A stretch of 64,000 bases of DNA from a virus. The notes beneath the pieces are model-generated. The model was given only the letters and a program-made list of their open reading frames with translations, was not told the DNA's origin and ran no database searches. The position numbers and the translations under genes were made by a program. The number at the start of each line of letters is the position of its first letter. Position 1 is the first letter of the stretch. Shown piece after piece: positions 12,243 to 63,075 of the stretch. The stretch lies in the UHGV virus genome UHGV-0057547; one strand, given 5' to 3'.

Positions 12243-12929
12243 TTATCCCTCCTTTATTCTTATATAATCTTTTAAATACATCCATTTAAATCCTTTGTGT
12301 TTTTTTAATTTACCGTTGCAACATCTGTTTATATGAGAAGCATAACCATTAACATCTCTCGAAGCTTCAGCTAAACTTTCATATATACATATAAATTCAT
12401 TTTCTAATGAAAGTTTTACAACTTTTATTTTATTTGGATTGTTTTCTCTACAATACCTTCCTTTTAATGTATTTGATATTTTTTCTTTTTGTTCCTGTGT
12501 TTTTGCTTTACCTTTATTAGCATTTGATATCTTTTTATTTCTTTCAACATTTCCCCATACATTTATTTTATTATGTTTATCCCACTCTTCTCCATATGCT
12601 AAACTACATTGACATTGTCCTATTGACCAATAATATTTTTGAAGTTCATATTCAAATTTTAAAGCATCTTGTTCATTTTTAAATTCTTGAACCACTTCAA
12701 TATTATAATTATAATTTATACTTTTTACATATTCTAGCCATACTTCATTCCTTCTACTTTTACCTTCTTCCAGTTTTCTATCATAGTTTTTACGTTCATT
12801 ATTAATTGTACCTTTTCCTACATAAAAAACTTCTTTAGTTTCTTTATTAATATATTTATACACATAATATGTTTTATTCATTTTTATCAACTCTAGGGTA
12901 TGGGTTTTTACAACAAAAATCGCCTTCAT
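12243..12929 (-). CDS. GIY-YIG homing endonuclease, free-standing, overlapping the 3' end of thyX
   Basis: YYVYKYI...FYVGKGT motif. C-terminal CCNGKLKKHKGFKWMY module. The start may be the ATG at 12881; the longer start at 12929 has a good RBS inside thyX. Confidence 0.7.
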   Translation of the reverse strand: MKAIFVVKTHTLELIKMNKTYYVYKYINKETKEVFYVGKGTINNERKNYDRKLEEGKSRRNEVWLEYVKSINYNYNIEVVQEFKNEQDALKFEYELQKYYWSIGQCQCSLAYGEEWDKHNKINVWGNVERNKKISNANKGKAKTQEQKEKISNTLKGRYCRENNPNKIKVVKLSLENEFICIYESLAEASRDVNGYASHINRCCNGKLKKHKGFKWMYLKDYIRIKEG

Positions 12930-13620
12930 TGCATTTACCTCTTACACAATCTGCACCAGCATATTTAAATAAAGTAGGTGCTACTTCTTTACATAATCTT
13001 AACATTTCATTAGCTAGTTCACATATAGGTTCTTGTGCTCTATGGCAACATCTTTTATTAAAGAAATGTAATAATTCTCTTACATTCATAGTCATTACCA
13101 TTTTAGTTTCACAAGCATTAGGCAACATTCCTCTTGCATTTTCATTTGCTACTTTTTCTGCATTCATACCATTAGTTGGATAATCATTTATTTCTACATA
13201 TTCTTTTATTATTTTTTGCCATTTAATATACTTGTCTAATATCTCCATCATATCTTCATGCCATTCATCTGCCATATCCATCTCTTTTACCACATTAGGT
13301 GTAGTGTGTTTAAATGTTTCATCAAGATTAACATATCTTTGAGATTGTTGACTATATGAAGCCACTCTGTGACGGACAATTTGATGTGAAATTGTTCTAT
13401 CAATTCCTTCAATAGCAAATGTAAACGAAACATGTTCTAATGGGCTATCGTGACCTATTTCAATTAAATGTGCTAAAAATTTTTCTATTTTTTCAGGAGT
13501 AAGTTTCTCCATTATTTCATCTACACCAACTTTACTATAACATAATTTTGCAGATTGGGCAATTACTTCTTCAGGATTTGGTGTATGTGCTAATATTTTT
13601 ACTTTTAATAAATCATTCAT
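12874..13620 (-). CDS. thyX: Flavin-dependent thymidylate synthase ThyX
   Basis: ThyX signature RHRxxSxxxxSQRY present as HQIVRHRVASYSQQSQRY. Confidence 0.85.
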   Translation of the reverse strand: MNDLLKVKILAHTPNPEEVIAQSAKLCYSKVGVDEIMEKLTPEKIEKFLAHLIEIGHDSPLEHVSFTFAIEGIDRTISHQIVRHRVASYSQQSQRYVNLDETFKHTTPNVVKEMDMADEWHEDMMEILDKYIKWQKIIKEYVEINDYPTNGMNAEKVANENARGMLPNACETKMVMTMNVRELLHFFNKRCCHRAQEPICELANEMLRLCKEVAPTLFKYAGADCVRGKCNEGDFCCKNPYPRVDKNE

Positions 13621-25122: not shown

Positions 25123-26223
25123 TTATTTATTTAATATTCTTAGTCCTTCATATAATATATTAATACTAGCGTTAATATCTCTATCATGATGTTTGCCACA
25201 ATATGGACAATCAAATTCTCTTATAGATAATTCTTTTTTACCAGTATTATTTCCACAATTACTACATATTTGACTAGAAGGATAATATTTGTCTATGATA
25301 ACGACAGTTCTACCATACCAATTAGCCTTATATTCTAATTGTCTTCTAAATTCATACCATGATACTTCGCTTATTGCTTTGGCTAACTTATGATTTTGTA
25401 AAAGATTTTTTACTTGTAAATCTTCTAAACATATTACTTGGTTTTCGTTTATAAGTTCAGAAGATAATTTATGTAAAAAATCTTTTCTTTGATTAGTTAT
25501 TTTTTCATAAGCTTTAGCTAAGTCAACTCTAGCCTTATTTTTATTCTTACTTCCTTTTTTCTTCCTAGATAAATCTCTTTGTAGTTTTTTTATTTTATTT
25601 TCTTGTTTTCTTAGCCATTTAGGATTAGAATATTTAACTCCATCACTAATTATAGCAAAATCAGTTAATCCTAAATCTATACCAACCGCAAATTCATTTT
25701 TAGGCAATTCTTTTATCTCTTGTTCTACTAATATAGATATATAATATTTACCACTAGGATTTTTAGATATCGTCGCCGATTTAATCTTTCCATCTTTAGG
25801 AATTTGTCTATGTTGTTTAATTCTAACTAGAGTTTTCAATTTAGGTAATTTAATATGTTTATCATCAACTATTCTAAGGATTTGTGTTTTTTGATTATTA
25901 TTTGTAGTATAACTATAATAATTATTTTTTTTAGATTTAAATTTAGGAAAACCTACATTTCTATCTCTAAAAAAATTTTTATATGCTTTATCTAAATCCA
26001 TTTGTGTATTTGCTAATGCTTGACTATCCACTTCTTTTAACCATGGAAATTCTTTTTTGTATTGAGCAGGTCTATTATACAACATTTTATTGTTCTTTTT
26101 ATAATATTCAATTTTATCATTTAACATTTTATTATAAATAAATCTTACACTACCAAAGCATTTAGAAAAATATATTTCTTGTTCTTTATTTGGATATAAT
26201 CTAAATTTATATGCTTTTAACAT
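25123..26223 (-). CDS. tnpB: TnpB (IS200/IS605-family OrfB, RuvC-like RNA-guided nuclease)
   Basis: 366 aa. RuvC-I ([11 protein letters not shown]), RuvC-II Glu region, C-terminal zinc finger CSNCG...CPYCG, then Ruv[15 protein letters not shown]. No tnpA nearby. Confidence 0.85.
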
Positions 26224-26439
26224 TTTTTCACCTCCTATCTTTAATTATTTATATATTCTTGCAATTGTTTTTCTATACTTACTATGAAATTTTACAATAT
26301 TATTCCTTTCATCTCGTTAGCTAAAATCAATTAATATTTATAAAATTTCATAAGTTGATATAATGTTAAAGTTTGTTGTTTTTCTAATGAAGCTAATATA
26401 TTATTCATAATTCATCTCTCCTTTATTAAGATTATTTTA

Positions 26440-27686: not shown

Positions 27687-28619
27687 TTATTTATTATCTT
27701 CATCATCTTCATATTTACTTAATATTTCACCTAATGTTTTAGATGATTCATCTTCAACTTCATCCTCTTTATCTTCTACTTCTTCATCTTCATCATCTTC
27801 TTTATGACATTTGCAATTTCCGTCACATTCACAATTTCCACCACATTTGCATTCTTTCTTATCTTCCATTCCTTCATCTCCTTCCTCATCTTCATCATCA
27901 TTTAATCCTAAAATTTCAGATAAACCTGTGTGTAATAAAGTTATTGCTAATTCTCCTTCTTCCATATCCATTAATTGAGCAAAGGTTTGGACTGCTAAAG
28001 CAGTTGCTTGATTAAATTTTTCATCTAATTCATCCCAATCAGGTTCACAACCTTCATATCCATAATTTATTATTCCTAACTCTATTGCTTCCTCATAGCC
28101 ATAGTATATACATTTTAATCTACTTGCTTCAATTTGTTCTTCAGGTATATTTGTTTGTTCTCTTATCATCTTATCATATAAATCATCCATATAATCACTA
28201 TGGTCTAAATCACTTCTAACTTCTTCTCTATATCCCATATAATGAGAACGACTACTATGATTCATACCAGCAAATAATTTATCTGCTGTCCTTTTATTAA
28301 ATGCTATATATATTATGAATGCCATAGACATACAAGTTATTCCATTCGCTATTAAAGGTATCCCTAATTCTTGCATCTCTTTTATTCTTGATATAATTAA
28401 GTTACCATCATATATATTTCCTCCGGGAGAGTTTATAGTAACTGTTATCATAGGAAATTTTTGTTGCATAATTTCTTTTATATAAGAAGTCTCCATTTTA
28501 TATGATGTAAATTCATCTATTATATCTTGTGTTTCTTCAATAAACTTATTAGATACATTATCATCAATTATTCCAGTTATAAATAATTCAGTTCTTAATC
28601 TATTTTTTTTATCTACCAT
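27687..28619 (-). CDS. ClpP-family serine protease with Cys-rich / acidic C-terminal extension
   Basis: ClpP core INSPGGNIYDG...GITCMSMAF. The tail carries KECKCGGNCECDGNCKCHKEDDEDEE (metallothionein-like) and a poly-acidic end. Confidence 0.6.
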   Translation of the reverse strand: MVDKKNRLRTELFITGIIDDNVSNKFIEETQDIIDEFTSYKMETSYIKEIMQQKFPMITVTINSPGGNIYDGNLIISRIKEMQELGIPLIANGITCMSMAFIIYIAFNKRTADKLFAGMNHSSRSHYMGYREEVRSDLDHSDYMDDLYDKMIREQTNIPEEQIEASRLKCIYYGYEEAIELGIINYGYEGCEPDWDELDEKFNQATALAVQTFAQLMDMEEGELAITLLHTGLSEILGLNDDEDEEGDEGMEDKKECKCGGNCECDGNCKCHKEDDEDEEVEDKEDEVEDESSKTLGEILSKYEDDEDNK

Positions 28620-28667
28620 ATCAACTATATCTTCCCTCTTATGAGGTACTTCCTTTCTTATTATTTT

Positions 28668-28704
28668 AATTATATTATACTAAGAAATTTATTAAAAGTA
28701 AATA
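28668..28704 (-). promoter_or_regulatory. Consensus promoter repeat
   Basis: -10 at 28674-28679, -35 at 28697-28702. Confidence 0.55.
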
Positions 28705-30617: not shown

Positions 30618-31898
30618 TTAACTTATCCTTTTATATCTTTTATTATGATTCCAATTTATATATTTCCATACTAATTTAGTCCCATCTTTTAACTTACCAC
30701 AATAATTTCTTTTACCTTGACAACATGAACATAAATTTTTAATATTAATATTATAATATGCAGAACCTTCATTTAAAGTATAAAAAATTCTATTTGTTGT
30801 TATACATATAACACTTCTTGATTTAGAATTATTTTTTCCACTATTTCTAATACCTTTTTCTTTTCTTGATTTTTCTACACTATAATCACATTTACCTATA
30901 ATATATCCATGCTTTAAATATTTTGCAACTGTTTGACGACATATATTTAATATATTACCTATTTCAACCGTATTATGTATTCCACTATTCCATAATTTCC
31001 AAGCCTTTATACATAAACTATTTTGACTTTCTTCCCATGCTAATTTCCAATCAATATTGCTTAAGTCAAAACATGGTGACAACTCTTTTATGATATTTTC
31101 TTTTAACCATTCTAATTCACTATATCTACAATCAATTACTATATAATTATTAATATGATTTTTAGCACATTTATATTTAAATAAATCATTCATTTGTTCT
31201 TGTTTTAAAGGTTTCCAATAATTTGCTTTATTTTCTATATAATGTTGTTCTCCATGAGTTTCTATTATCATGTTATGTCTAGGTAAATAAAAATCATATT
31301 CAAAATATCCACACCATTTAAAATTTGATTTATTTAATTGATATATAAAATCTTCATCTAATTGTTTTAATACATTTGACATAAACTTTTCAGTTATAGG
31401 TAAACCATCAGAACAAAATTCACATGAATATCTTCTTTTTACTACATTATCTAATATTTTTTTATTTTTTGATATATTACCACAATCTAAACATTTAAAA
31501 TAATATTTTTTATGACTTTTACAAGATATATTATAACAATCATCAAAAATTAAATCATTCTCAGTTATAGCAATCATTTTAGCTACATTTGGATAATTAT
31601 ATGCTAAACTATCTTTATAATGAACTTTATGATTTCCACAATATCCACATTTTCTATTATTATAAAAATTACTACAACTTATTTCGTACCCAATTTTATT
31701 GCCTTCTCTATCATAATTATGGTAATCATTTTCTAAACAATATAGCCAAACTTTTTTATTTGATTGTTTTCTGATTTCATAAGGATGAATATCTAACTCA
31801 TTATTCTTCTCCCAATTCCATATGTCATTTAAATTTAATCCTAATTCAACTTCTATATGATAAGCAAACGAATTATCATATTTTATTTTCTTATTCAT
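30618..31898 (-). CDS. Homing-endonuclease-like protein: Zn-ribbons + PD-(D/E)XK (DUF559-like) nuclease domain + shared C-terminal DNA-binding module
   Basis: Multiple CxxC pairs. YDFYLPRHNMIIETHGEQHY nuclease motif. C-terminal CSCCQGKRNYCGKLKDGTKLVWKYI. Paralog of 52646..54067. Confidence 0.5.
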   Translation of the reverse strand: MNKKIKYDNSFAYHIEVELGLNLNDIWNWEKNNELDIHPYEIRKQSNKKVWLYCLENDYHNYDREGNKIGYEISCSNFYNNRKCGYCGNHKVHYKDSLAYNYPNVAKMIAITENDLIFDDCYNISCKSHKKYYFKCLDCGNISKNKKILDNVVKRRYSCEFCSDGLPITEKFMSNVLKQLDEDFIYQLNKSNFKWCGYFEYDFYLPRHNMIIETHGEQHYIENKANYWKPLKQEQMNDLFKYKCAKNHINNYIVIDCRYSELEWLKENIIKELSPCFDLSNIDWKLAWEESQNSLCIKAWKLWNSGIHNTVEIGNILNICRQTVAKYLKHGYIIGKCDYSVEKSRKEKGIRNSGKNNSKSRSVICITTNRIFYTLNEGSAYYNINIKNLCSCCQGKRNYCGKLKDGTKLVWKYINWNHNKRYKRIS

Positions 31899-32133: not shown

Positions 32134-34040
32134 TTATATGAAAAATATACTATTATCTTTATCAGCACAAATTATTTTAGTAGTTTTATTTGATTTTCTA
32201 AGTTCTTCTTCCATCTTATCTCTAAATTTATATTTACTATCATCGCTATGATGTATAACAATTAAATTAGTATTGATACCTTTCATCATTTTAATTATTT
32301 CTTTTCCTTGTATATGAGAAGACCATGTATTATATCTTATGACTTTAGCTTTCTTTTTAAATGACATATTTTCAATTTTAACTTCTTTAGTATTGTCGTT
32401 TAATAATAATCCTCCTACTGTTGTTGGAGCACAATAACCAATTATCATTATAGTATAATTACTATCCTCTATATTTGCTTTTAAATGATTTAATATTCTA
32501 CCTATATTACACATGCCAGCAGATGATATTACAATTTTTTGTTGTTCTTTATTAAGTGCTAAATTCATAGATGTCTCAAAGTCTTTTACAAAATGAAGTT
32601 TTTCCCATGATAATATTTGTTCAAATATGTCTTTATCTTCCTTGTTTAATATTTGTTTATAAACATCATTGATTTCCAAAGAAAGTTTACCATCTAAGAA
32701 TATAGGAGTTTTAAAATTTGGGTCATTAGAAAAAGTATTATATAAGTAATATAATAAATCTTGAGTTCTAGCTTGAGCAAAAGCTGGTATTAAAATTGAA
32801 TGACCTTGTTTTAATTCATTAATTATATCATCTTTCATTTTTTTTCTTTCTTTTTCAATATCTTTTGCATTAAATCCTCTTGATAAATCTGAATAAGTTG
32901 CTTCTGTTATTACTAAATTGGCATTTGATATAGTTTTAGTTTTTTTACGGAATGGTTGTTGATTATTAAAACTACCTGTATCTCCACTATAATATATTTT
33001 TTTTGTAACTCCACTTGGCATTTTAAAGAATAATTCTATTGAAGTTGCTCCTACTATATGGTTATTTGGCAAAAGTCTAAAGCTAACATATTCATTTAAC
33101 TCATGTATAACATCTTCTTCATAAGTAGAAGTTTTTGATAACATTCTATATACATCGCTTTCAGTATAAAGAGGTTCTACCTTATATCCTTGATTACTCA
33201 TTTGTCTACAATTTCTTTGTAATATATAAGCACCATCTATCAATAAAGGTTCAGATAATTCTTTATTCTCATAACCCATAATAAATTTATCTACATTATC
33301 TACTATAGCTGGTAGATTTCCTATATGGTCTAGTGATTTCAAAGATGTGAATGAGATACAAAACAAGCTTTTATTTGACCACATTCACAAACTTTTTCAA
33401 CCACCCCCTTATTAACCACATATTCTTCTCTTAAAGCACCATTCATTTGAACCATACCACATTCAATAAGAACTTTTTCATAGTCTCCTTCTTTTGTTGG
33501 ATATGATAAAAGTATAGATGTTCCAACAACACCATTATGACTTTCTCCTACAAATTCAACTATTACTTTATTTTTATTTTTCTTACTTATAATATATGGA
33601 TTCTTTTTCTTCTTTTTCTTTTTCTTAATTACATTGAGATTTTCTTTTCTACAATCTAAAAAATCACCATTTATAAACTCTATTTTATTATCATTTCCTA
33701 ATATATAATTTTGTAAAGTTGTATTTTTGCCTAGCACATCTCCAATAATACAAGAATGTTTTTTGTTCCATCTTACATTTTTACATGTTTTTACATCGTC
33801 TAAATCTATCAACACTCTTTCTTCAAGCTCTTCTTGAAACAAGGCATCATACAATACAATTTCAGCATAATCTTTATGTATTATTATTTCATTATTGTCA
33901 AATTCTGTTATAGGACTATCTGATATACAGAAACCATATTTCCTATATTCGTCCCAATGTTTTTTGCAAAGTCCATTTTTATTTTTTTTGCTTAATAGTT
34001 TTCCACATTGGTTACAGTATTTTTTATTATCTTTGTTCAT
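32134..34040 (-). CDS. HNH-endonuclease N-terminal domain fused to an MBL-fold beta-CASP-type nuclease, with the MBL HxHxDH motif interrupted by an 11-nt stop-containing insert
   Basis: Two track ORFs (33339..34040 and 32134..33384). Frame A ends FVSHSHL-TGA. Frame B continues DHIGNLP after the 11-nt TGAAATCACTA (plus strand 33331-33341). Removing it restores FVSHSHLDHIG. The N-terminal 140 aa carry a Zn-finger and HNH-like motif INGDFLDCRKENLNV. Confidence 0.55.
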
Positions 34041-36630: not shown

Positions 36631-36985
36631 CCAAACGGTAACTGCAAGATACGTTAATACCGTTCCTTTCGGAATACTTTAACACCCATTTAAGGGTCGG
36701 ACTAGACTATACCTTTATCTTCGACATTACTCGTTAAGATATGCCTATTATAGTCGTTGAAGGTTTCCCATCTTAAAGGGACTTCCCTGCTGATTATCCA
36801 TTCATTCACCCTTAGCACTCTCACAAGGCTTTTATTTCAGCTTAGGCAATCCTTATAATTTTTTCTGCTTTCGCAACCATCAAGTTTAATGTTACCATTT
36901 ACTTTGTGGTTTATAAGGCTTTAGGAACTCCCAGCAATTTAAGGCATCATAATCTACATAATTTCTTATATAGACGACTATTAAA
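36631..36985 (-). ncRNA. Group I self-splicing intron (ORF-less) in dnaE
   Basis: Structured, GC-richer 355-420-nt ORF-free segment between the two DnaE halves. P/Q/R/S core elements occur in the right order on the minus strand (AAAUUGCUGGGAG; AAUCAGCAGGGAAG; UUCAACGACUAUAA; AAGGUAUAGUCUAGUCCG, giving P7 GACUA/UAGUC). Candidate IGS GUCGU pairs with exon end AUGAU. Exact 3' splice site unresolved. Confidence 0.75.
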
Positions 36986-38668
36986 TTAATCATTCTTTAA
37001 ATATTTATAAACATCACAATTATAACCATCTAAATTACAACATATTCCTTCTTTAGTTTTTATTAAACCAATTTCTTCTGAAACATTTTTATCATATAGT
37101 AACATTGAACAAGGTGATTCTGATATACTTTCCACTACTCCCTTAAATACTTTTGAATCTTTTATTATTTTTCCCCAATATTCATCGTTTTCATATTGCT
37201 CTAAATTTTTAGCTATTTCATCGTATTTACTAACATGCATATCATTTGCTTTACACCATAATCTAAAAGCAGATGAATCTTGTAAAGGTTTATATGATAA
37301 AATCCAAGCACAATTTTCTTCGCCTAATAAATCTTTAGTTGCTTGTATAAAAACTGAACGGTCTTCTGTATTTAAATCAACATCGGGTAATGAACGAGTA
37401 CCTAATATACGTTCTATACTCATAAATCTAGTTGGATACAATGGAACTGGTGCTGATAATCTATCTATTTCTGTTAAGCCTAATAATTTGTTTATAAGAA
37501 AACTTACAGCAGAACCTCTTCCTGTCTTAGTTAATAAGCCATTATATTTATTTATTGCTCTTTGACATATTTTATAATCTAATATAAAATAATCTTCCAT
37601 ATGTGTTTTCTCAATTATATTAAATTCATATCTTATAGCTTCTAAATATTCATTCCATCTCTCTTTAGGTATTGTATCTCTTATTTCCATCCATCTTTTA
37701 TTAATTATATCTTTTAATTCTTTATTTGGATTATTTGATATTGATGGCATTTTAATTTCTTTATCTAATATAATATTTTCACATTCATCAAAAATTAAAG
37801 TATTATTAATTGCATCTTTTATTTGCTCTTCATTTAATATATTTTGTTTATTATATCGTTCTATTATAGTTTCTACATCAGGATAATCTAATATAAAGTT
37901 TGTTTCTTCTTTATATATGATGCCTTTTGCTTTAAGAAATAATTCTCTATAAATATAATCTTGTGGATTAATATAATGTGAATCGTTACCATGAATAATA
38001 TTAATATTATATTTTTCACTTAAGCATAGAATTTTTTTATTAAGATTTTTTTGTATATCTTCATTATGGTTTTGAACTTCTAAATAAAAATTATTACCAA
38101 AATATTCTTTCATTTTTATAATCCAATCGTCTAAGCCTTCATCATTTCTTAAACGACCAGCAACACAAGCAGTTGTTATAATTGTATTATTTGGATTAAT
38201 ACTAAATAATAATTCATCATCTATTCTATTTTTATAATATACCCCATCTATATTGCTATAGGATAATATTCTATTTAAGTCTCTATATCCATCTTTATTT
38301 TTTGCTATTATAACTAAGTGATAATTAGAGTTATCTTTTTCTTTTCTATCTTTAACATAATATGCTTCTGCACCAACTACCATTTTAATACCTTTATATG
38401 ATTTATCGCATGTATCTTTATATTTACATTTTTCACAATTATGTTTTGTATATTCATTATTTTCTTGAGTAAGTTTTACACATACTTCACTACATAAAGT
38501 ATTTGCTTCATATACATTACCTTGATAACCATGTTCAGTAGTAAAATATATTGCATCTTTACCATCTAATTCAATTGCTCTAACTATATATTCTATTGGT
38601 TTAGTAACCACATCTAAACTTTTAATATTGCTATATATTTTATGTGAATGATAATTATTACATCTCAT
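36986..38668 (-). CDS. dnaE: DNA polymerase III alpha (DnaE-like), exon 1 (PHP and palm domains)
   Basis: PHP start NNYHSHKIYS. GRGSAVSFLINKLLGLTEIDRL. Catalytic LPDVDL (PDxD). Ends ...YLKND at the position of the third catalytic Asp. Confidence 0.7.
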   Translation of the reverse strand: MRCNNYHSHKIYSNIKSLDVVTKPIEYIVRAIELDGKDAIYFTTEHGYQGNVYEANTLCSEVCVKLTQENNEYTKHNCEKCKYKDTCDKSYKGIKMVVGAEAYYVKDRKEKDNSNYHLVIIAKNKDGYRDLNRILSYSNIDGVYYKNRIDDELLFSINPNNTIITTACVAGRLRNDEGLDDWIIKMKEYFGNNFYLEVQNHNEDIQKNLNKKILCLSEKYNINIIHGNDSHYINPQDYIYRELFLKAKGIIYKEETNFILDYPDVETIIERYNKQNILNEEQIKDAINNTLIFDECENIILDKEIKMPSISNNPNKELKDIINKRWMEIRDTIPKERWNEYLEAIRYEFNIIEKTHMEDYFILDYKICQRAINKYNGLLTKTGRGSAVSFLINKLLGLTEIDRLSAPVPLYPTRFMSIERILGTRSLPDVDLNTEDRSVFIQATKDLLGEENCAWILSYKPLQDSSAFRLWCKANDMHVSKYDEIAKNLEQYENDEYWGKIIKDSKVFKGVVESISESPCSMLLYDKNVSEEIGLIKTKEGICCNLDGYNCDVYKYLKND

Positions 38669-49481: not shown

Positions 49482-49585
49482 AATAATTCCTCCTTATTAA
49501 CAATAATATGAAAATACTAAACTATCATTTTCCGTTTCAATATTTATTCTTAAATTTCCCTATTCAACGTGTTCTTTTTCACTTT

Positions 49586-49650
49586 ATATAAGCTACTCAA
49601 GTTTTTATAACACTCCAAGGGCGTAAATTCGGATTTGAACATCCCTACAT
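49586..49650 (-). promoter_or_regulatory. Conserved structured 5'-leader element, copy A
   Basis: Core ACTCAAGTTT.TAT.A.ACTCC.AGGGCGTAAATTCGGA..TGAAC shared with 63010..63075. Lies between the promoter and the gene start. Confidence 0.45.
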
Positions 49651-51594: not shown

Positions 51595-52686
51595 CTATTT
51601 ATTATAATTTTTATATTCTTTAATTAGCTTCTTTGTATAATTAAATAAACTATTCGAATCTTTTCTTTGTATTTCAACATCATACCATTCCATAGGTGTT
51701 CTTGAATAAAAATCCCCAAACCCTCCTGGTGCAACATGACCATTATGTACTCCCATACCTATTTCAGTACCATAATATATGCATATATCATTATTTTTAA
51801 AAGAGAACATTATTTCTAAAGCTTGTTTTATTTTATTAATATCATGATTAAAACTTACAGATATTCTCGTTTGGTCGTGATTGTCTAAAAATATAACAGA
51901 CCTTTCTTCATTATTGTCAATAACTAAATGTTGTTTATTTATAACTGTGTTTTTAACCCATCCAGCTTCCTGGAAGTTAAATGTCTTCATACCTGTTTCT
52001 TTTGCATACATATCACTTATTTCAAAACTATCCCATGCTTCTCCTACAATATATGCGTTAGGTTTTATTGAATAAACCATATTACAGAACCATTTCCAAA
52101 ATTCAATCTTATCACCACTTGCAAAAATAATAGCATCAAGTCTAAAACCATCTACCTTATGTTCTAATAACCAAAATCTAATTACACTTTCAATCATTTC
52201 TCTAACTTTTTCAGATTGATTATTAAGTTGTGGCATTTGCTCTGACCAAGGGGCTAGATACCATTTTTTATTACTATAGCAGTATTTCCATTGGTTATTT
52301 ATTTGAACATCAGACCAAAAGTAGCAGTCATTTTTTCCTTCTATACTCTCTTGAAATAATTTATGATGATATCCGGTATGACATAAAACTAAATCTAATA
52401 ATACTTCTAAACCATTTTCATGTGCCTTTTTAATAAAATTATCAAAATCTTCTAAAGTCCCATATTGTTCTCTAATTTTAAAATATGAATCTACAGAATA
52501 CCCATGTTCATTATCAGATGGATGAATAGGAGTTAACCATAAAGTTGTAACTCCCAATTCTACAAAATAAGGTATTTTTTCAGTTAAATCTTTAAAATCT
52601 CTACAAAATGATGGAAAATATATTTCATATATCACTCTTCTTTTTTTATTCATTTTTTTCTTCACACTCCTTGATATAATCTTCAT
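51595..52686 (-). CDS. Glycoside hydrolase family 13 (alpha-amylase superfamily catalytic domain)
   Basis: GH13 signature regions DLVLCH, GFRLDAI (nucleophile Asp), GEAW (acid/base Glu), FLDNHD. Confidence 0.7.
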   Translation of the reverse strand: MKIISRSVKKKMNKKRRVIYEIYFPSFCRDFKDLTEKIPYFVELGVTTLWLTPIHPSDNEHGYSVDSYFKIREQYGTLEDFDNFIKKAHENGLEVLLDLVLCHTGYHHKLFQESIEGKNDCYFWSDVQINNQWKYCYSNKKWYLAPWSEQMPQLNNQSEKVREMIESVIRFWLLEHKVDGFRLDAIIFASGDKIEFWKWFCNMVYSIKPNAYIVGEAWDSFEISDMYAKETGMKTFNFQEAGWVKNTVINKQHLVIDNNEERSVIFLDNHDQTRISVSFNHDINKIKQALEIMFSFKNNDICIYYGTEIGMGVHNGHVAPGGFGDFYSRTPMEWYDVEIQRKDSNSLFNYTKKLIKEYKNYNK

Positions 52687-54067
52687 AATACATCCATTTT
52701 AATTTTGTTCCATCTTTTAATTTACCAGCATGTTCTCTTTCACCATTACAACAACTAGAAATATTACTTTTTCCCATATTGAAATATTCTTCAGCTTCGC
52801 ATATAGAATCAAATTTTTTATCTATTGTTATACAATATACTTCTCGTGAACCATAATGATTACGACCTCTATTTTTATTATATCCTATCCTTTTACTTTC
52901 TTCTATTGTATAATCACATTTATCACATTCCACTCCTCTTTTTAGGAATTTTACAACAAGACTTCTATTTATTTTTAACATATCTCCTATTTTAACAACA
53001 TCATGTATTCCACTATTCCATAATTCCCAAGATTTAACACATAAGCTATTTTGACTTTCTTCCCATGCTAATTCCCAATCAATATTAGATAAATCAAAAC
53101 AATCACTAAGTTCTTTTATGATGTTTTCTTTTAACCAATTAAGTTCACTATATCTACAATCAATTGTAATATAATTATCAATATGATTTTTAGCACATTT
53201 ATATTTAAATAAGTCGTTCATTTTTGTTTCGTCTAATTTTCCCCAATTTCCTCCTGGTTGAACATAATGTTGTCCTCCATGTGTTTCTATTATCATATTT
53301 AAGCTAGGAATATAAAAATCATATTCATAATTATTACACCAAGTAAAATTTGTTTTTGATAAATGTAATATATAATCAATTTTCAATTGACTTAATATGT
53401 TTAGCATAAATTTTTCAGGTATGTTTATTCTATCTCCACATATATAACATGAATAACCTCTTTTTACTATATTAGACAAAAGTTTTTTATCTCGTGATAT
53501 TGCGTTACAATCTAAACATTTGAAATAAAACTTTCTATTACTATAACACGATATTTTATAACAATCTTCAAAAGTTAAGTTGTTTTTAGGTATCGCAATC
53601 ATCTTAGCTATTTTGGGATAGTTATAAGCTAAGGAATCCTTTGGATGAAGTTTATTTTGTTTTCTACAATAGCTACATCTATTTCCTTCATAAAAATGTG
53701 AGCAAGTAACACTGTATCCACCATAATCATTATGATAATCACATTTAAGACAATATAACCATATTTTCCTATTACTCCTTTTAGTAATCTGATAAGGATT
53801 AATTCCATTTTTATTATTTTTATCCCAATTCCAAATATCATTTATGTTTAATTTTAATTCTTTTTCTATATAATATCCTATAGTTTCTTCATATCTAATT
53901 GGATGTTTTACTGACCCATCTTTAAAATCTCTATAACTTCTATGCTTAATGATAACTCCATCTTCAAATTGAATACTTATATCTTGATTATTTATGTATT
54001 CTATTATAGTTATTTTCTCACCTTTTTTATTATAGTTGCTTTCTCCTACTCTATTTATTAAAGGCAT
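52646..54067 (-). CDS. Homing-endonuclease-like protein (Zn-ribbons + PD-(D/E)XK DUF559-like + C-terminal module), paralog of 30618..31898
   Basis: YDFYIPSLNMIIETHGGQHY. C-terminal ISSCCNGEREHAGKLKDGTKLKWMYY. Confidence 0.5.
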   Translation of the reverse strand: MPLINRVGESNYNKKGEKITIIEYINNQDISIQFEDGVIIKHRSYRDFKDGSVKHPIRYEETIGYYIEKELKLNINDIWNWDKNNKNGINPYQITKRSNRKIWLYCLKCDYHNDYGGYSVTCSHFYEGNRCSYCRKQNKLHPKDSLAYNYPKIAKMIAIPKNNLTFEDCYKISCYSNRKFYFKCLDCNAISRDKKLLSNIVKRGYSCYICGDRINIPEKFMLNILSQLKIDYILHLSKTNFTWCNNYEYDFYIPSLNMIIETHGGQHYVQPGGNWGKLDETKMNDLFKYKCAKNHIDNYITIDCRYSELNWLKENIIKELSDCFDLSNIDWELAWEESQNSLCVKSWELWNSGIHDVVKIGDMLKINRSLVVKFLKRGVECDKCDYTIEESKRIGYNKNRGRNHYGSREVYCITIDKKFDSICEAEEYFNMGKSNISSCCNGEREHAGKLKDGTKLKWMYYEDYIKECEEKNE

Positions 54068-56988: not shown

Positions 56989-58605
56989 TTATTTATTACT
57001 TTCATAAAAAACTTTATATAATTTATATGTCTCATATAAATCACGCTTACTAATTGTTTCCATAGGGCTATGCATGGATGCCGTAGGCACACCAGCATCC
57101 ATTGTTTCCATTCCTCTTATTCCAAAGAACATAGCAACTGTTCCTCCACCAGTTTCACTAACTTTAGTTGTATCAACTTGATATTTTACATTATTATCAA
57201 CACATAAACCTTTAATATATTCTCTCATCTCTATACTTGCATCATTTCCTCGTTTTAATCCAGTAAATGGTACTAATGCAACACCATTACCACATACTGC
57301 TTTGGCACTATCTTCAAAGTGACTACTATAATTACTATCAAATCCACCAGTTACATCTGCACTAATTACCTTTGTATTTCTCATAAACTCTCTAGTCAAT
57401 AATGTATGTCCATTTGCTAAAATAAGAAATATATCATCTATAAATTGAGTTTCAGCACCACTCATTTGTCCACTTCCAGTTTCTTCATAAGCAGTGAATA
57501 AAGCTATCTTTGTTCTTTTATTAGGCTTGCTAGTTAATATAGCTTCTAATTCAGCATAAGCACAACTTTTATCATCATGTCCATAACCTAATAATAAATC
57601 TTTATCTAATCCCATTTCTAAAGTTCTAAAATAAGGTACAAAACTTAAATCAGCTAATTCAAAATTCTCTTTTGTTATTCCATATTCTTTTTCTAGCATT
57701 TCAAATAATTCTTCTTTATTTCCATTACTCATTCTTACTAATAATTTATCATAAGACAAGTCTTTCACTTCTTTTCTACCTCTTAAATGAGGCAATAAAC
57801 TAGTTATAGAAAATAAATATCCTTTTTCTCCAGTATTTATATATTTGATTTCATCATCTACTTTTATTTTTCCAACCATTACAAAAGGTCTATCCAACCA
57901 TAATTGTGGTATTATTCCTCCATATGGTTGTGTTTTTATAAATGTTCCATCATCATTAGATACAAATGGTTCACCTACTATAACATCTAATCTAGGACTA
58001 TCAATATGACTTACTATTAAATTAGCACCTTCTGATATATCTTCACCTACTTCTACTAAAGCTATCAATTTATCTCTAAATTCAAATATTAATTTATCTC
58101 CTACATTAAAGTGTTTATAATTATAAGTTTTATATCCCACATCTTCTGCTTTATCTTTTATATATTTTAATACTTGTGTTTCATGTAAGCCTTCTTCTAA
58201 TAAATATTTATATTCATCTATAAAATTATCCTCTTCATTATTATCTTGTGCCTTATATAATTCTTCTAATAAAACATCTAATACATCTCTATCTTTTTCT
58301 TCATCAATTATTTCTTTTAAGGTATCATATTTTATATCAGGAAGCCATTTTGAATACATAACATTATCTCTAAATATTATTTTTATTCTTGATTTTTTAG
58401 CTATAATAGATTTTGTGTTTAATTCATAAATCTTTTTCCATTGAGTTGGCAATTCTCTTCCATTCGACCAATAATAACCCAATTCTTCTAATGATATTAA
58501 TACTTGCTCAATAACTTCTTTATCATCATTAACTTCTATTATAACTTGTTTATCATTTTTTTTACTTAATTCCTCTATTAAACTTGTTATCCTTCTTATA
58601 CTCAT
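56989..58605 (-). CDS. Two-domain protein with C-terminal M42/M18-type aminopeptidase-like domain
   Basis: C-terminal half has metallopeptidase-like blocks (GHDDKSCAYAELEA, TAYEETGSG, SMHSPMETISKRD); 538 aa. Confidence 0.45.
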   Translation of the reverse strand: MSIRRITSLIEELSKKNDKQVIIEVNDDKEVIEQVLISLEELGYYWSNGRELPTQWKKIYELNTKSIIAKKSRIKIIFRDNVMYSKWLPDIKYDTLKEIIDEEKDRDVLDVLLEELYKAQDNNEEDNFIDEYKYLLEEGLHETQVLKYIKDKAEDVGYKTYNYKHFNVGDKLIFEFRDKLIALVEVGEDISEGANLIVSHIDSPRLDVIVGEPFVSNDDGTFIKTQPYGGIIPQLWLDRPFVMVGKIKVDDEIKYINTGEKGYLFSITSLLPHLRGRKEVKDLSYDKLLVRMSNGNKEELFEMLEKEYGITKENFELADLSFVPYFRTLEMGLDKDLLLGYGHDDKSCAYAELEAILTSKPNKRTKIALFTAYEETGSGQMSGAETQFIDDIFLILANGHTLLTREFMRNTKVISADVTGGFDSNYSSHFEDSAKAVCGNGVALVPFTGLKRGNDASIEMREYIKGLCVDNNVKYQVDTTKVSETGGGTVAMFFGIRGMETMDAGVPTASMHSPMETISKRDLYETYKLYKVFYESNK

Positions 58606-58624: not shown

Positions 58625-59431
58625 TTATTTATTATTCTCTATTCTATCTTTAGACATATTAAAATAATCCTTATCCAATTCTATACCTATAAAATTCCTA
58701 TTAGTCTTTAAACAAGCAACTCCTGTACTACCACTTCCCATTGTAAAGTCCAATACTAAATCATCTTCATTAGTATAAGTCTTAATTAAATATTCTAATA
58801 ATTCAACAGGTTTTTGAGTAGGATGGACACCACCTCTTCTCACCTTATTAAATTCAATTAATGTTATTGGATTTTTATATTCATATGTTTTTTTATATTC
58901 TTTTCCTTTACCCATACATTTAAAATCAGCATATGCACCTGCTTGAATATTGTTGCCACCACTTTTATAGGTTTTTCTCTTTTAATCATTTGTGGATAAT
59001 ATATTGTCTTTTCTCCATTTTTCGTAAATACACATATATCTTCAGTTTGTTGCATAGGTCTATATTTCGCATTTCCCATACCACTAGGTATTTTCTTATT
59101 CCAATCCCATCTATATTTAAATCCCTTTAAATTACTACATATTAAATTACTTGTAAATGGTTCATTCCCAAATAAACATATAGCCCCATTAGGTTTTATC
59201 AACTTATTTATTCTTTCCCACATTTCATTAAATGGAATTACACTATCCCATTTACATGTAGTAGTTCCGATTTCAACCATACGGAGGGTCAGTAAGTATA
59301 CAATCTACTTGTATATCATGTTCTATTAAATAATCCATTACTTCTAAACAATCTCCATTAAATAGAACACAATTAGAGTCTCCGTATGAATTGAAATCAC
59401 CTCCTTTAACTAAATCATTTAAATCTATCAT
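58625..59431 (-). pseudogene. Beta-class DNA (N6-adenine or N4-cytosine) methyltransferase split over three reading frames
   Basis: Fragment A 59273..59431 (…DCILTDPPYG, then TGA). Fragment B 59280..58864, +1 relative to A (…KWDSVIPFNEMWERINKLIKPNGAICLFG). Fragment C 58915..58625, -1 relative to B (…GVHPTQKPVELLEYLIK…DLVLDFTMGSGSTGVAC). Motif order DPPY … HPTQKP … FxGSGST is that of one contiguous beta-class MTase. Confidence 0.6.
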
Positions 59432-62942: not shown

Positions 62943-63009
62943 ACAATAACGTTTCAGTGCTTGTTACAATTTCAGAACAAGCTTCCCTATTCATCGTATC
63001 CTCTTTCCT

Positions 63010-63075
63010 TTTTACAAAGTACTCAAGTTTGTATGATACTCCCAGGGCGTAAATTCGGAACTGAACTTTCCTATT
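63010..63075 (-). promoter_or_regulatory. Conserved structured 5'-leader element, copy B
   Basis: Same core as 49586..49650; the hairpin stem differs by compensatory changes (UACAAA/UUUGUA vs UUAUAA/UUAUAA). Confidence 0.45.

Follow-up and report, generated by a model that had tools for sequence, protein, structure and literature searches.

A conserved stop-bearing gap after the DPPYG motif of a phage DNA methyltransferase gene, a candidate site of short-range translational bypassing

The virus genome stretch UHGV-0057547 (64,000 nucleotides (nt), referred to here as the window) carries a DNA methyltransferase gene whose reading frame was interrupted twice, whereas only one interruption was found in its relatives. 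The shared break directly follows the catalytic DPPYG motif. Comparison among relatives indicates that it is conserved and under purifying selection, and not a product of decay. We consider it probable, at roughly 0.6, that ribosomes decode this break by a stop-hop, a short-range translational bypass of +10 from GGT to GGA. Judged by its alleles, the second break is a real one-base deletion private to the sub-lineage of the window. For this genome, the result tells a conserved break that is probably functional apart from an ordinary, probably inactivating, allele.

Anatomy of the methyltransferase gene

The window is AT-rich (GC content 0.25) and matched contigs of about 204 kb; Clostridium phage c-st is distantly related to it, as are two Clostridioides phage records. 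The methylase lies at 59431-58625 on the minus strand as three consecutive open reading frames (ORFs). The ORFs and the parts of the conceptually repaired gene are as follows.

59431-59273, minus strand: ORF 1, 52 amino acids (aa), C-terminal end TDPPYG followed by TGA
59280-58864, minus strand: ORF 2, 138 aa, N-terminal sequence MVEIGTTTCKWD
58915-58625, minus strand: ORF 3, 96 aa, carrying HPTQKP and FTMGSGST
59276..59431, minus strand: segment 1, 52 codons that begin with ATG (59431) and end with the take-off codon, with GDCLEVM and the catalytic motif IV DPPY
59276..59278, minus strand: proposed take-off codon GGT (Gly of DPPYG)
59269..59275, minus strand: 7-nt coding gap TGAAATC, beginning with the in-frame stop TGA (59275-59273) and missing from intact homologues
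59266..59268, minus strand: proposed landing codon GGA, the first GG past take-off; decoding would restart at ACT (59265)
58967..59265, minus strand: segment 2 (TTTCKWD to REKPI), at +1 with respect to the frame of segment 1
58963..58966, minus strand: A4 run at the second frame break, A5 in five aligned relatives
58625..58962, minus strand: segment 3 (SGGNN, HPTQKP, FTMGSGST, stop TAA), in the frame of segment 1

ORF 3 was back in the frame of ORF 1, because the distance from 59431 to 58915 is 516 nt, or 3x172. The Pfam family N6_N4_Mtase (PF01555) was matched by ORF 2 over profile positions 33-121 and by ORF 3 over positions 159-220. As separate ORFs they scored 25.8 and 88.1 bits against a cut-off of 26.7, while the conceptually repaired protein reached 126.9 bits over the whole profile (1-220). 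The repaired protein also aligned end-to-end with intact methylases, with identities of at most 68% to those of the phage collection and of 83-84% to those of the protein database. Both hallmarks of the beta class were present, namely motif IV TDPPYG at the end of ORF 1 and, toward the C-terminus, the AdoMet-binding motif I DFTMGSGST with HPTQKP before it. By its motifs and profile match, the gene is a beta-class N6/N4 DNA methyltransferase. This bears out an earlier sequence-only reading of the region, which described a methylase split over three frames with the motif order DPPY, HPTQKP and FxGSG. Its suspicion of A-runs near 58.95 kb as the place of the second break was likewise accurate, the run being the A4 tract at 58966-58963.

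The first break is conserved and selectively constrained

Compared with intact homologues, break 1 is a 10-nt insertion in the context CCG TAT GGT-TGAAATC-GGA ACT ACT ACA TGT AAA TGG. Skipping from GGT to GGA gave exactly the canonical DPPYG-TTxCKWD (here DPPYG-TTTCKWD), the form seen in P0002 and P0375, which are uninterrupted. The product of the hop has the sequence of intact relatives, DPPYGTTACKWD or DPPYGTTTCAWD, the latter in the closely related P0375.

The breaks were compared in five related contigs (L004-L007 and L023; four from IMG/VR and one from Logan) with nucleotide identities of 92-99.8%. The junction at break 1 was the same in all five, whose DNA was read, and some of them lay in another genomic context. 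The exact 52-aa N-terminal product was recorded on 72 contigs; together with the shared junction, this shows that the pattern did not arise by chance. Downstream of the break, the ratio of nonsynonymous to synonymous substitution (dN/dS) was 0.04-0.16 for segments 2 and 3 jointly, with dS up to 0.40; the wrong frames gave values above 1. The insert is common to all the lineages compared and is thus older than their divergence. The 52-codon upstream part was open in every compared lineage, with a ratio of 0.2-0.7 based on too few changes for firmness, and the motifs were all intact in each gapped relative. In addition, several different central regions (target recognition domains, TRDs) were found joined to the gapped N-terminal part, so the architecture has persisted through diversification. 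The sequence-only reading had proposed that breaks varying between isolates would mark a pseudogene. Such variation was seen at break 2, with A4, A5 and A6 alleles, but not at break 1, which was invariant and followed by constrained sequence.

Close relatives of the junction in the window read TGAAATT-GGA, TGAAATC-GGC and TGAAATCA-GGA. The last of these (L175) has an 8-nt gap and stands in another frame than the window. Homing-like co-conversion was considered and rejected: identity had no peak at the junction, and its profile followed the conserved N- and C-terminal regions around the variable TRD.

Natural variants of the junction follow a common rule

We scanned IMG/VR, one genome per species, and JGI metagenomes for the pattern ACN GAY CCN CCN TAY GGN followed by TGA, and IMG/VR only for the same pattern followed by TAR. 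After chance matches were dropped, at least 43 distinct junction strings remained, belonging to two methylase subfamilies and to contigs with GC contents of 0.23-0.63. The canonical spacing is DPPYG-TTxCKWD in family A, as checked on intact homologues, and DPPYG-xx-FMGKxWD in the other subfamily, as checked in Mycobacterium phage Daenerys gp61. All junction counts given from here on are among the matches listed.

The codon that restores this spacing was GGN in 28 of 43 junctions, AGN in 13 and another codon in two, both of which had GGG as take-off codon. By chance, about two GGN would be expected at the critical position in 43 junctions (G frequency about 0.13-0.32). We state no formal probability because the junctions are not all independent. 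In the 41 junctions that conformed to the rule, the restoring codon was the first GG (or AGN) downstream of take-off, with no earlier GG. The skips ranged from +5 to +17 (gaps of 2-14 nt), and their lengths modulo 3 were 0, 1 and 2 in 9, 13 and 21 junctions, respectively. The sequence-only reading had taken the first break as a +1 shift; this spread over all three frames favours the +10 hop from GGT to GGA instead. Examples are listed below.

GGC TGA GGC ACT: +6, in frame
GGT TA GGA ACT: +5
GGA TAATTAA GGA ACA: +10, stop in the +1 frame
GGT TGAATAAATT GGC TAT: +13, stop in the +1 frame
GGT TGACTAATCTAAAA GGT ATA: +17

The landing codon was kept even where the gaps of relatives differed by 1 nt, as in TGAAATC-GGA versus TGAAATCA-GGA and in TGAGTT-AGT versus TAGTT-AGC. 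The junction GGT-TAGTT-AGC was identical in contigs with GC contents of 0.36 and 0.59 despite differing synonymous sites in the flanks. For 12 of the 43 junctions a simple +1 or +2 shift was no solution, and in 10 of the 19 family-A junctions there was no start codon at which translation could reinitiate. As a control, HPTQKP plus TGA gave four matches and no methylase, while TDPPYG plus TGA gave 23 methylase loci in the same collection. The methylase set was itself selected for a stop, and a stop in the A site could serve as a criterion only in the nuclease lineages described below.

Several features were noted alongside the survey. The junction GGT TG AGC ACG (+5) occurred on five contigs (L085, L093, L111, L178 and L183) of the Leptolyngbyaceae metagenome-assembled genome CBDHHL01, so the gene there lies on a repeated or mobile element. 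The commonest type in family B, GGT TGAATTA AGC TAT GGA, was present in L033, L034, L039, L048, L049 and L054 and in metagenome relatives; no cultured-phage example of it was found in the phage collection. In L033, the ORF up to the take-off stop comprises 237 codons, with an N-terminal region that resembles HNH to the eye. The intact homologue of mycobacteriophages follows directly on a gene for an HNH endonuclease (Daenerys gp60/gp61).

Three other candidates were discarded. The split methylase of E. coli phage vB_EcoM_011D4 (H15) has its break in the middle of the gene and away from DPPYG, and is unrelated. The string TTGAAATC is not a repeated element: the window held 5 copies against 5.9 expected, just the two junction copies were sense and frame-breaking, and extra copies in related loci were ordinary in-frame codons. 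A generic scan of the window for a codon, a stop, a gap and the same codon again between long flanking ORFs returned AAA/TTT chance noise, with support from homology at the methylase and the nuclease only.

A nuclease gene and a primase gene carry comparable interruptions

An MBL/beta-CASP nuclease gene of the window is broken in a similar manner.

32134..34040, minus strand: MBL/beta-CASP nuclease gene, made up of two ORFs that meet at the gap
33331..33344, minus strand: junction with take-off codon CTT, stop-bearing gap TGAAATCA and landing codon CTA, followed by GAC CAT

The split falls inside the HxHxDH motif (CAT TCA CAT CTT-TGAAATCA-CTA GAC CAT), and skipping the gap restores HSHLDH. The gap begins with a stop in the upstream frame, its first seven bases are TGAAATC as in the methylase, and its flanks are matched Leu codons. 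Only the product of the exact skip regained the Lactamase_B match. The junction was the same in four relatives, and both halves were strongly constrained by purifying selection, with dN/dS values of 0.00-0.05. Among homologues in the protein database, many ORFs were C-terminal-only, starting at or near DH with 47-99% identity, and were interleaved with intact genes.

We read the DNA of this gene in eight lineages that had been collected without requiring a stop. In all eight, a Leu codon was followed by a stop at the same place, and the gaps were 1, 2, 5, 7, 8, 8, 8 and 11 nt long.

L031/L032: CTT T GAC, 1 nt, identical to the prfB site CUU-UGA-C; codon before GAY overlapping
L030: CTC TA GAT, 2 nt; codon before GAY is CTA, overlapping
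L027: CTT TGATA GAC, 5 nt; codon before GAY is ATA
L025: CTG TGAA CTA GAT, 7 nt; codon before GAY is CTA
L024: CTG TGAGT CTA GAC, 8 nt; codon before GAY is CTA
L028/L029: CTT TGAAG CTA GAC, 8 nt; codon before GAY is CTA
L026: CTT TGAAACCA GAC, 8 nt; codon before GAY is CCA
Window: CTT TGAAATCA CTA GAC, 11 nt; codon before GAY is CTA

CTA stood directly before GAY-CAY in five of the eight lineages. In L030 and L031, the downstream frame had no ATG, GTG or TTG ahead of the DH residues. As to the surroundings, a DUF4379 protein (30621-31898, minus strand) lies immediately downstream of the gapped gene, and the nuclease gene of the related contig L024 is likewise followed by a NUMOD-like ORF. Pfam matches among the neighbours were limited to DUF4379 and one sub-threshold NUMOD-like match.

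The primase gene contains a smaller interruption.

42365..42373, minus strand: +1 site CCC-A-CAT-AG, with the zero-frame stop TAG at 42367-42365

Intact primase homologues read IIIPHRDQLG. Since they continue IIIPHRD, the extra base is placed at CCC-A-CAT, and not in the order sense codon, stop, A that the sequence-only reading had described. The break was kept in six contigs down to 88% identity, with dN/dS values of 0.11-0.13 on both sides. Here tRNA(Pro) may slip by +1, re-pairing from CCC to CCA one codon ahead of the stop. That reading had also noted mid-gene stops with an intact downstream frame in all three enzymes, more than chance pseudogenisation would predict. Conservation was found for break 1 and for the primase and nuclease breaks, the latter two with dN/dS values of 0.00-0.13 on both sides, so this phage lineage carries several mid-gene interruptions in need of recoding. 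Conservation did not extend to the second methylase break.

The second methylase break is an allele of a short A-run

The A4 run at break 2 was A5 in all five aligned relatives. With A5, a single open frame leads from the junction to the stop codon, and the protein agrees with homologues at PIK-SGGNN. In exact-sequence look-ups, the A4 allele, represented by the 138-aa and 96-aa ORFs, was present on 18-20 contigs, some of them about 204 kb long. An allele that differed only in having A5 was present on at least 48 contigs and A6 on one, and the tract is only 4-6 nt long. The window differed from its nearest relative by a single gap in 2.6 kb, which argues that break 2 is not an artefact of poor sequence. 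The sequence-only reading had left room for this break to be programmed; an A5 to A4 change found in this sub-lineage only does not fit that idea.

The A4 allele probably inactivates the copy of the methylase in the window, which would yield no full-length enzyme unless tRNA(Lys) slips by -1 on A-AAA-G. Barring such a slip, even the hopped product would be without HPTQKP and FxGSG. Two variants of the middle ORF (58864-59280), P0362 and P0363, were also recorded, with A6 at the same run and an A5 to A4 change at ACGAAAAATGG. Each was found on a single short contig, so both minor alleles and assembly errors are possible explanations. A phase-variable homopolymer switch would be expected to show repeated length changes of a long tract on independent backgrounds; the one candidate for a second background of the A-run frameshift (P0365) was rejected, its split being a scaffold N-gap.

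A stop-hop could account for the junctions

The anatomy of the gene, the conservation of break 1, the purifying selection and the comparative rule were established directly; from them we infer the hop, its efficiency and its purpose. In the proposed mechanism, a ribosome with peptidyl-tRNA(Gly) on GGU would meet UGA in the A site. In a fraction of ribosomes, the tRNA would unpair, the mRNA would slide by 10 nt, and the tRNA would re-pair at the first downstream GG codon, GGA. Decoding would restart at ACU and give the canonical DPPYG-TTTCKWD enzyme, and the other ribosomes would terminate after 52 residues. The same logic would apply to the nuclease (CUU to CUA, +11) and, in a minimal form, to the primase (CCC to CCA, +1). 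In general terms, a slow 3' neighbour, here a stop, would hold the peptidyl-tRNA, and the first matching downstream codon would set the new frame. Bypassing would then grade into +1 and +2 shifts at the stop where the two codons overlap.

If ribosomes hop in this manner, gap length can drift by non-multiples of three with both ORFs intact, no earlier cognate codon is expected in the gap, and the restored protein should always be canonical. This single process would cover 41 of 43 methylase junctions, six of eight nuclease junctions (five CTA landings and the prfB-like +1 site) and the primase. The 13 AGN landings imply that a mismatch at the first codon position would be tolerated.

A number of observations weigh against this explanation. 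Support for the hop is wholly comparative, and the junction types are in part phylogenetically non-independent. Around either gap, no RNA structure exceeded shuffled controls (z-scores +0.4 to -1.4), no family in Rfam matched at the gaps, and no element resembling a Shine-Dalgarno (SD) sequence was evident. The efficiency may therefore be low, and the sites resemble simple stop-hops and not the elaborate site of T4 gene 60. The AGN landings pair imperfectly and two junctions fit no rule; likewise, L026 and L027 have no cognate landing codon in the nuclease. In the window itself, no stop closes the +1 frame across the gap (E-I-G), and the stop is overlapped by an ATG (ATGgtTGA). It is the comparative series, and not the junction of the window, that disfavours a +1 shift or reinitiation there. 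Finally, the flanking GG repeats could stem in part from the origin of the insertions through microhomology and not from selection for re-pairing.

The purpose of such gaps may be to throttle a toxic enzyme, to make expression dependent on release factor 2 (RF2), or to shield a conserved DNA site from homing endonucleases. The homing-endonuclease link is weakly supported here; linkage through the long N-terminal ORF of L033-type loci was dropped, as Pfam did not bear out its resemblance to HNH.

Alternative explanations

A programmed +1 frameshift at GGU-UGA-A, in which the U of the stop is skipped to give DPPYG-EIG-TTTCKWD with the junction peptide DPPYGEIGTTTCK, is an unlikely alternative. 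Stop-adjacent shifts are a known class (prfB, antizyme), the TGAAATT variants, like the window, have an open +1 frame through the gap, and the Pfam score of the product is just 2 bits under that of the hop product (124.8 versus 126.9). However, GGU is unable to re-pair at +1 (GUU), the close relative L175 would need +2, the shifted frame contains stops in L064, L037 and L291, and nine junctions are in frame. In the nuclease, a simple shift adds 1-4 residues inside HxHxDH and loses the Lactamase_B match. A separate mechanism would be needed for each lineage, while the hop covers all but two of the methylase junctions.

About equally improbable is a split enzyme, in which translation would stop at UGA and reinitiate at the overlapping ATG, and the 52-aa DPPY peptide would assemble non-covalently with a 218-aa peptide. 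Phage genes are commonly coupled by stop-start overlaps. Every +10 junction has an ATG 5 nt ahead of the stop, several of the +5, +8 and +11 junctions have a TTG that overlaps it (TTGA), and the 218-aa ORF was called on many contigs. The ATG is nevertheless not preceded by an SD sequence but by CCUCC, and an in-frame start is missing in more than half of the family-A junctions and in L030 and L031. It also leaves unexplained the duplication of the Gly or Leu codon at the spacing-restoring position in 41 of 43 junctions and the absence of an earlier GG in the gap. Moreover, a break in DPPY-G-TT or HxHx-DH would put chain termini in the catalytic loop.

We find it very unlikely that the gene is a decaying pseudogene with two inactivating breaks and no recoding. 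The confinement of A4 to a sub-lineage, the coexistence of A4, A5 and A6 alleles, and the A4 copy without HPTQKP and FxGSG in frame agree with decay at break 2. For break 1, the comparative data already contradict it: the break is fixed across lineages at dS of about 0.3-0.4, dN/dS has been 0.04-0.16 since it arose, the motifs are intact in every gapped relative, and one site was hit in at least 43 junction variants with none at the control motif.

Excision of the insert before translation, at the RNA or DNA level between short direct repeats, has a comparably small chance. Repeats of 2 nt (GG...GG, CT...CT) flank the inserts, whose exact removal would leave the canonical gene. We know of no excision process for inserts of 5-17 nt in bacteria or phages, neither an Rfam match nor a predicted structure was found at the site, and the upstream-frame stop in eight of eight nuclease lineages, found without a search for stops, points to a ribosomal event. 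Reassignment of the stop codon was rejected, since it cannot mend out-of-frame gaps and the genes of the window are intact under code 11; no tRNA genes were found in the window. A sequencing or assembly artefact can practically be dismissed: homopolymer indels do occur in some assemblies (P0362, P0363) and one apparent split was a scaffold N-gap, but a 10-nt insert is no homopolymer error and recurs in JGI, ENA, Logan and NCBI contigs, and the A4 allele is found on 18-20 contigs, long ones included, in sequence with a single gap in 2.6 kb.

Other features of the window

The gene for DNA polymerase III alpha is also split on the minus strand, and the sequence between its parts possibly represents a structured RNA, such as a group I intron without an ORF; no Rfam match at the gathering threshold was found there. 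Proteases and other enzymes form an unusual cargo for a phage. These and further features are listed below.

38689-36989, minus strand: DNA polymerase III alpha, PHP and NTPase domain
36678-35035, minus strand: DNA polymerase III alpha, finger and HhH
36679-36988, minus strand: interruption between the two parts, about 310 nt, GC-richer, closed in all frames
49556-49621 and 62983-63047, minus strand: two intergenic RAGATH-18 RNA matches, 69 and 63 bits (gathering score 44.9)
25126-26244, minus strand: TnpB / IS605 OrfB-type protein with OrfB_IS605, Cas12f1-like TNB and HTH_OrfB domains
12246-12941, minus strand: sub-threshold I-HmuI NUMOD-like match, adjoining thyX
52649-54067, minus strand: sub-threshold I-HmuI NUMOD-like match, adjoining an alpha-amylase-family gene and carrying a DUF4379 treble-clef zinc finger
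42998-44899, minus strand: FtsH-like AAA+/M41 protease
56992-58605, minus strand: M18-family aminopeptidase with an N-terminal extension
27690-28679, minus strand: ClpP-like protease
51598-52698, minus strand: alpha-amylase-family enzyme

Implications

Whether the junctions represent a widespread and previously undescribed class, in which stop-starting gaps of 2-14 nt in DNA-acting phage enzymes are hopped by peptidyl-tRNA(Gly) or peptidyl-tRNA(Leu), seems to us evenly balanced. Natural bypassing is known from very few cases, namely T4 gene 60 and its relatives, the byps of yeast mitochondria and the phiHau3 terminase. If the class is real, no large set of stop-hops would have been found in nature before it, and in-frame ones would be included, and its gaps may act as the throttle or the guard suggested above. 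If the gaps are hopped, bypassing would be a recurrent part of phage gene expression over the whole GC range of the survey, and dozens of natural variants in gap length, stop and landing codon would be at hand for dissecting the mechanism. Annotation pipelines and the interpretation of methylomes miss these enzymes because gene callers split or truncate them, and REBASE-type inventories may miss gapped methylases likewise. A search of the literature, in a library that was incomplete, found no description of bypassing in DNA methyltransferases.

Comparison with known recoding systems

In T4 gene 60, a gap of 50 nt is bypassed with an efficiency of about 40-50% with the help of a take-off stem-loop, a nascent-peptide signal and an SD-like element, and protection of a homing-endonuclease site has been proposed as its role. 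The junctions described here share with gene 60 the matched Gly take-off and landing codons, the stop 3' of take-off, an insert absent from homologues and a DNA-acting phage enzyme, but their gaps are only 2-14 nt long and no stem-loop or SD-like element was detected. The byp elements of Magnusiomyces capitatus mitochondria are GC-rich, 27-55 nt long and apparently mobile within one mitochondrial genome. They too are numerous short coding inserts between matched take-off and landing codons, whereas the inserts here are much shorter and occupy one catalytic-motif codon across many phages.

The prfB (RF2) site CUU-UGA-C is found again as CTT-TGA-C in the nuclease of L031/L032 and would form the one-nucleotide end of the same series. 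It differs from the methylase gap of the window in its upstream SD-like stimulator and overlapping re-pairing, the methylase gap being non-overlapping (+10) and without an SD element. Synthetic stop-hops and shifty stops in engineered constructs, reportedly described in E. coli by Weiss and colleagues in 1987 (cited in PMC10732093, ref. 47), are said to work with efficiencies around the percent level. There, as proposed here, the peptidyl-tRNA re-pairs past a stop, and their CUU-stop-CUA and +5/+6 hops match the nuclease junctions and GGC-TGA-GGC. A 2016 review remarked on the small number of natural cases of bypassing and stated that in-frame stop-hops were not known from nature (PMC5009743). 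The present set, in contrast, contains nine natural in-frame candidate junctions.

The closest documented case is the terminase of the Streptomyces phage phiHau3. This gene has two 10-nt inserts (7 nt in a prophage) that are absent from homologues and are predicted to be bypassed by +10, and only three such genes are known (PMC10732093). The trigger is the rare sense codon UUA, read by the host bldA tRNA, and a stem-loop and an SD element were proposed; in E. coli, the junction peptide (GWG-NDP) was detected by mass spectrometry when the A-site codon was a stop (PMC10732093). The present junctions differ in having a true stop, no structure that we could find, methylases and a nuclease as hosts, and dozens of variants across a wide GC range. 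They agree with the phiHau3 terminase in being short frame-disrupting inserts in phage genes, with a slow A-site codon at take-off and, for the methylase of the window, a predicted +10 displacement and a Gly at the junction.

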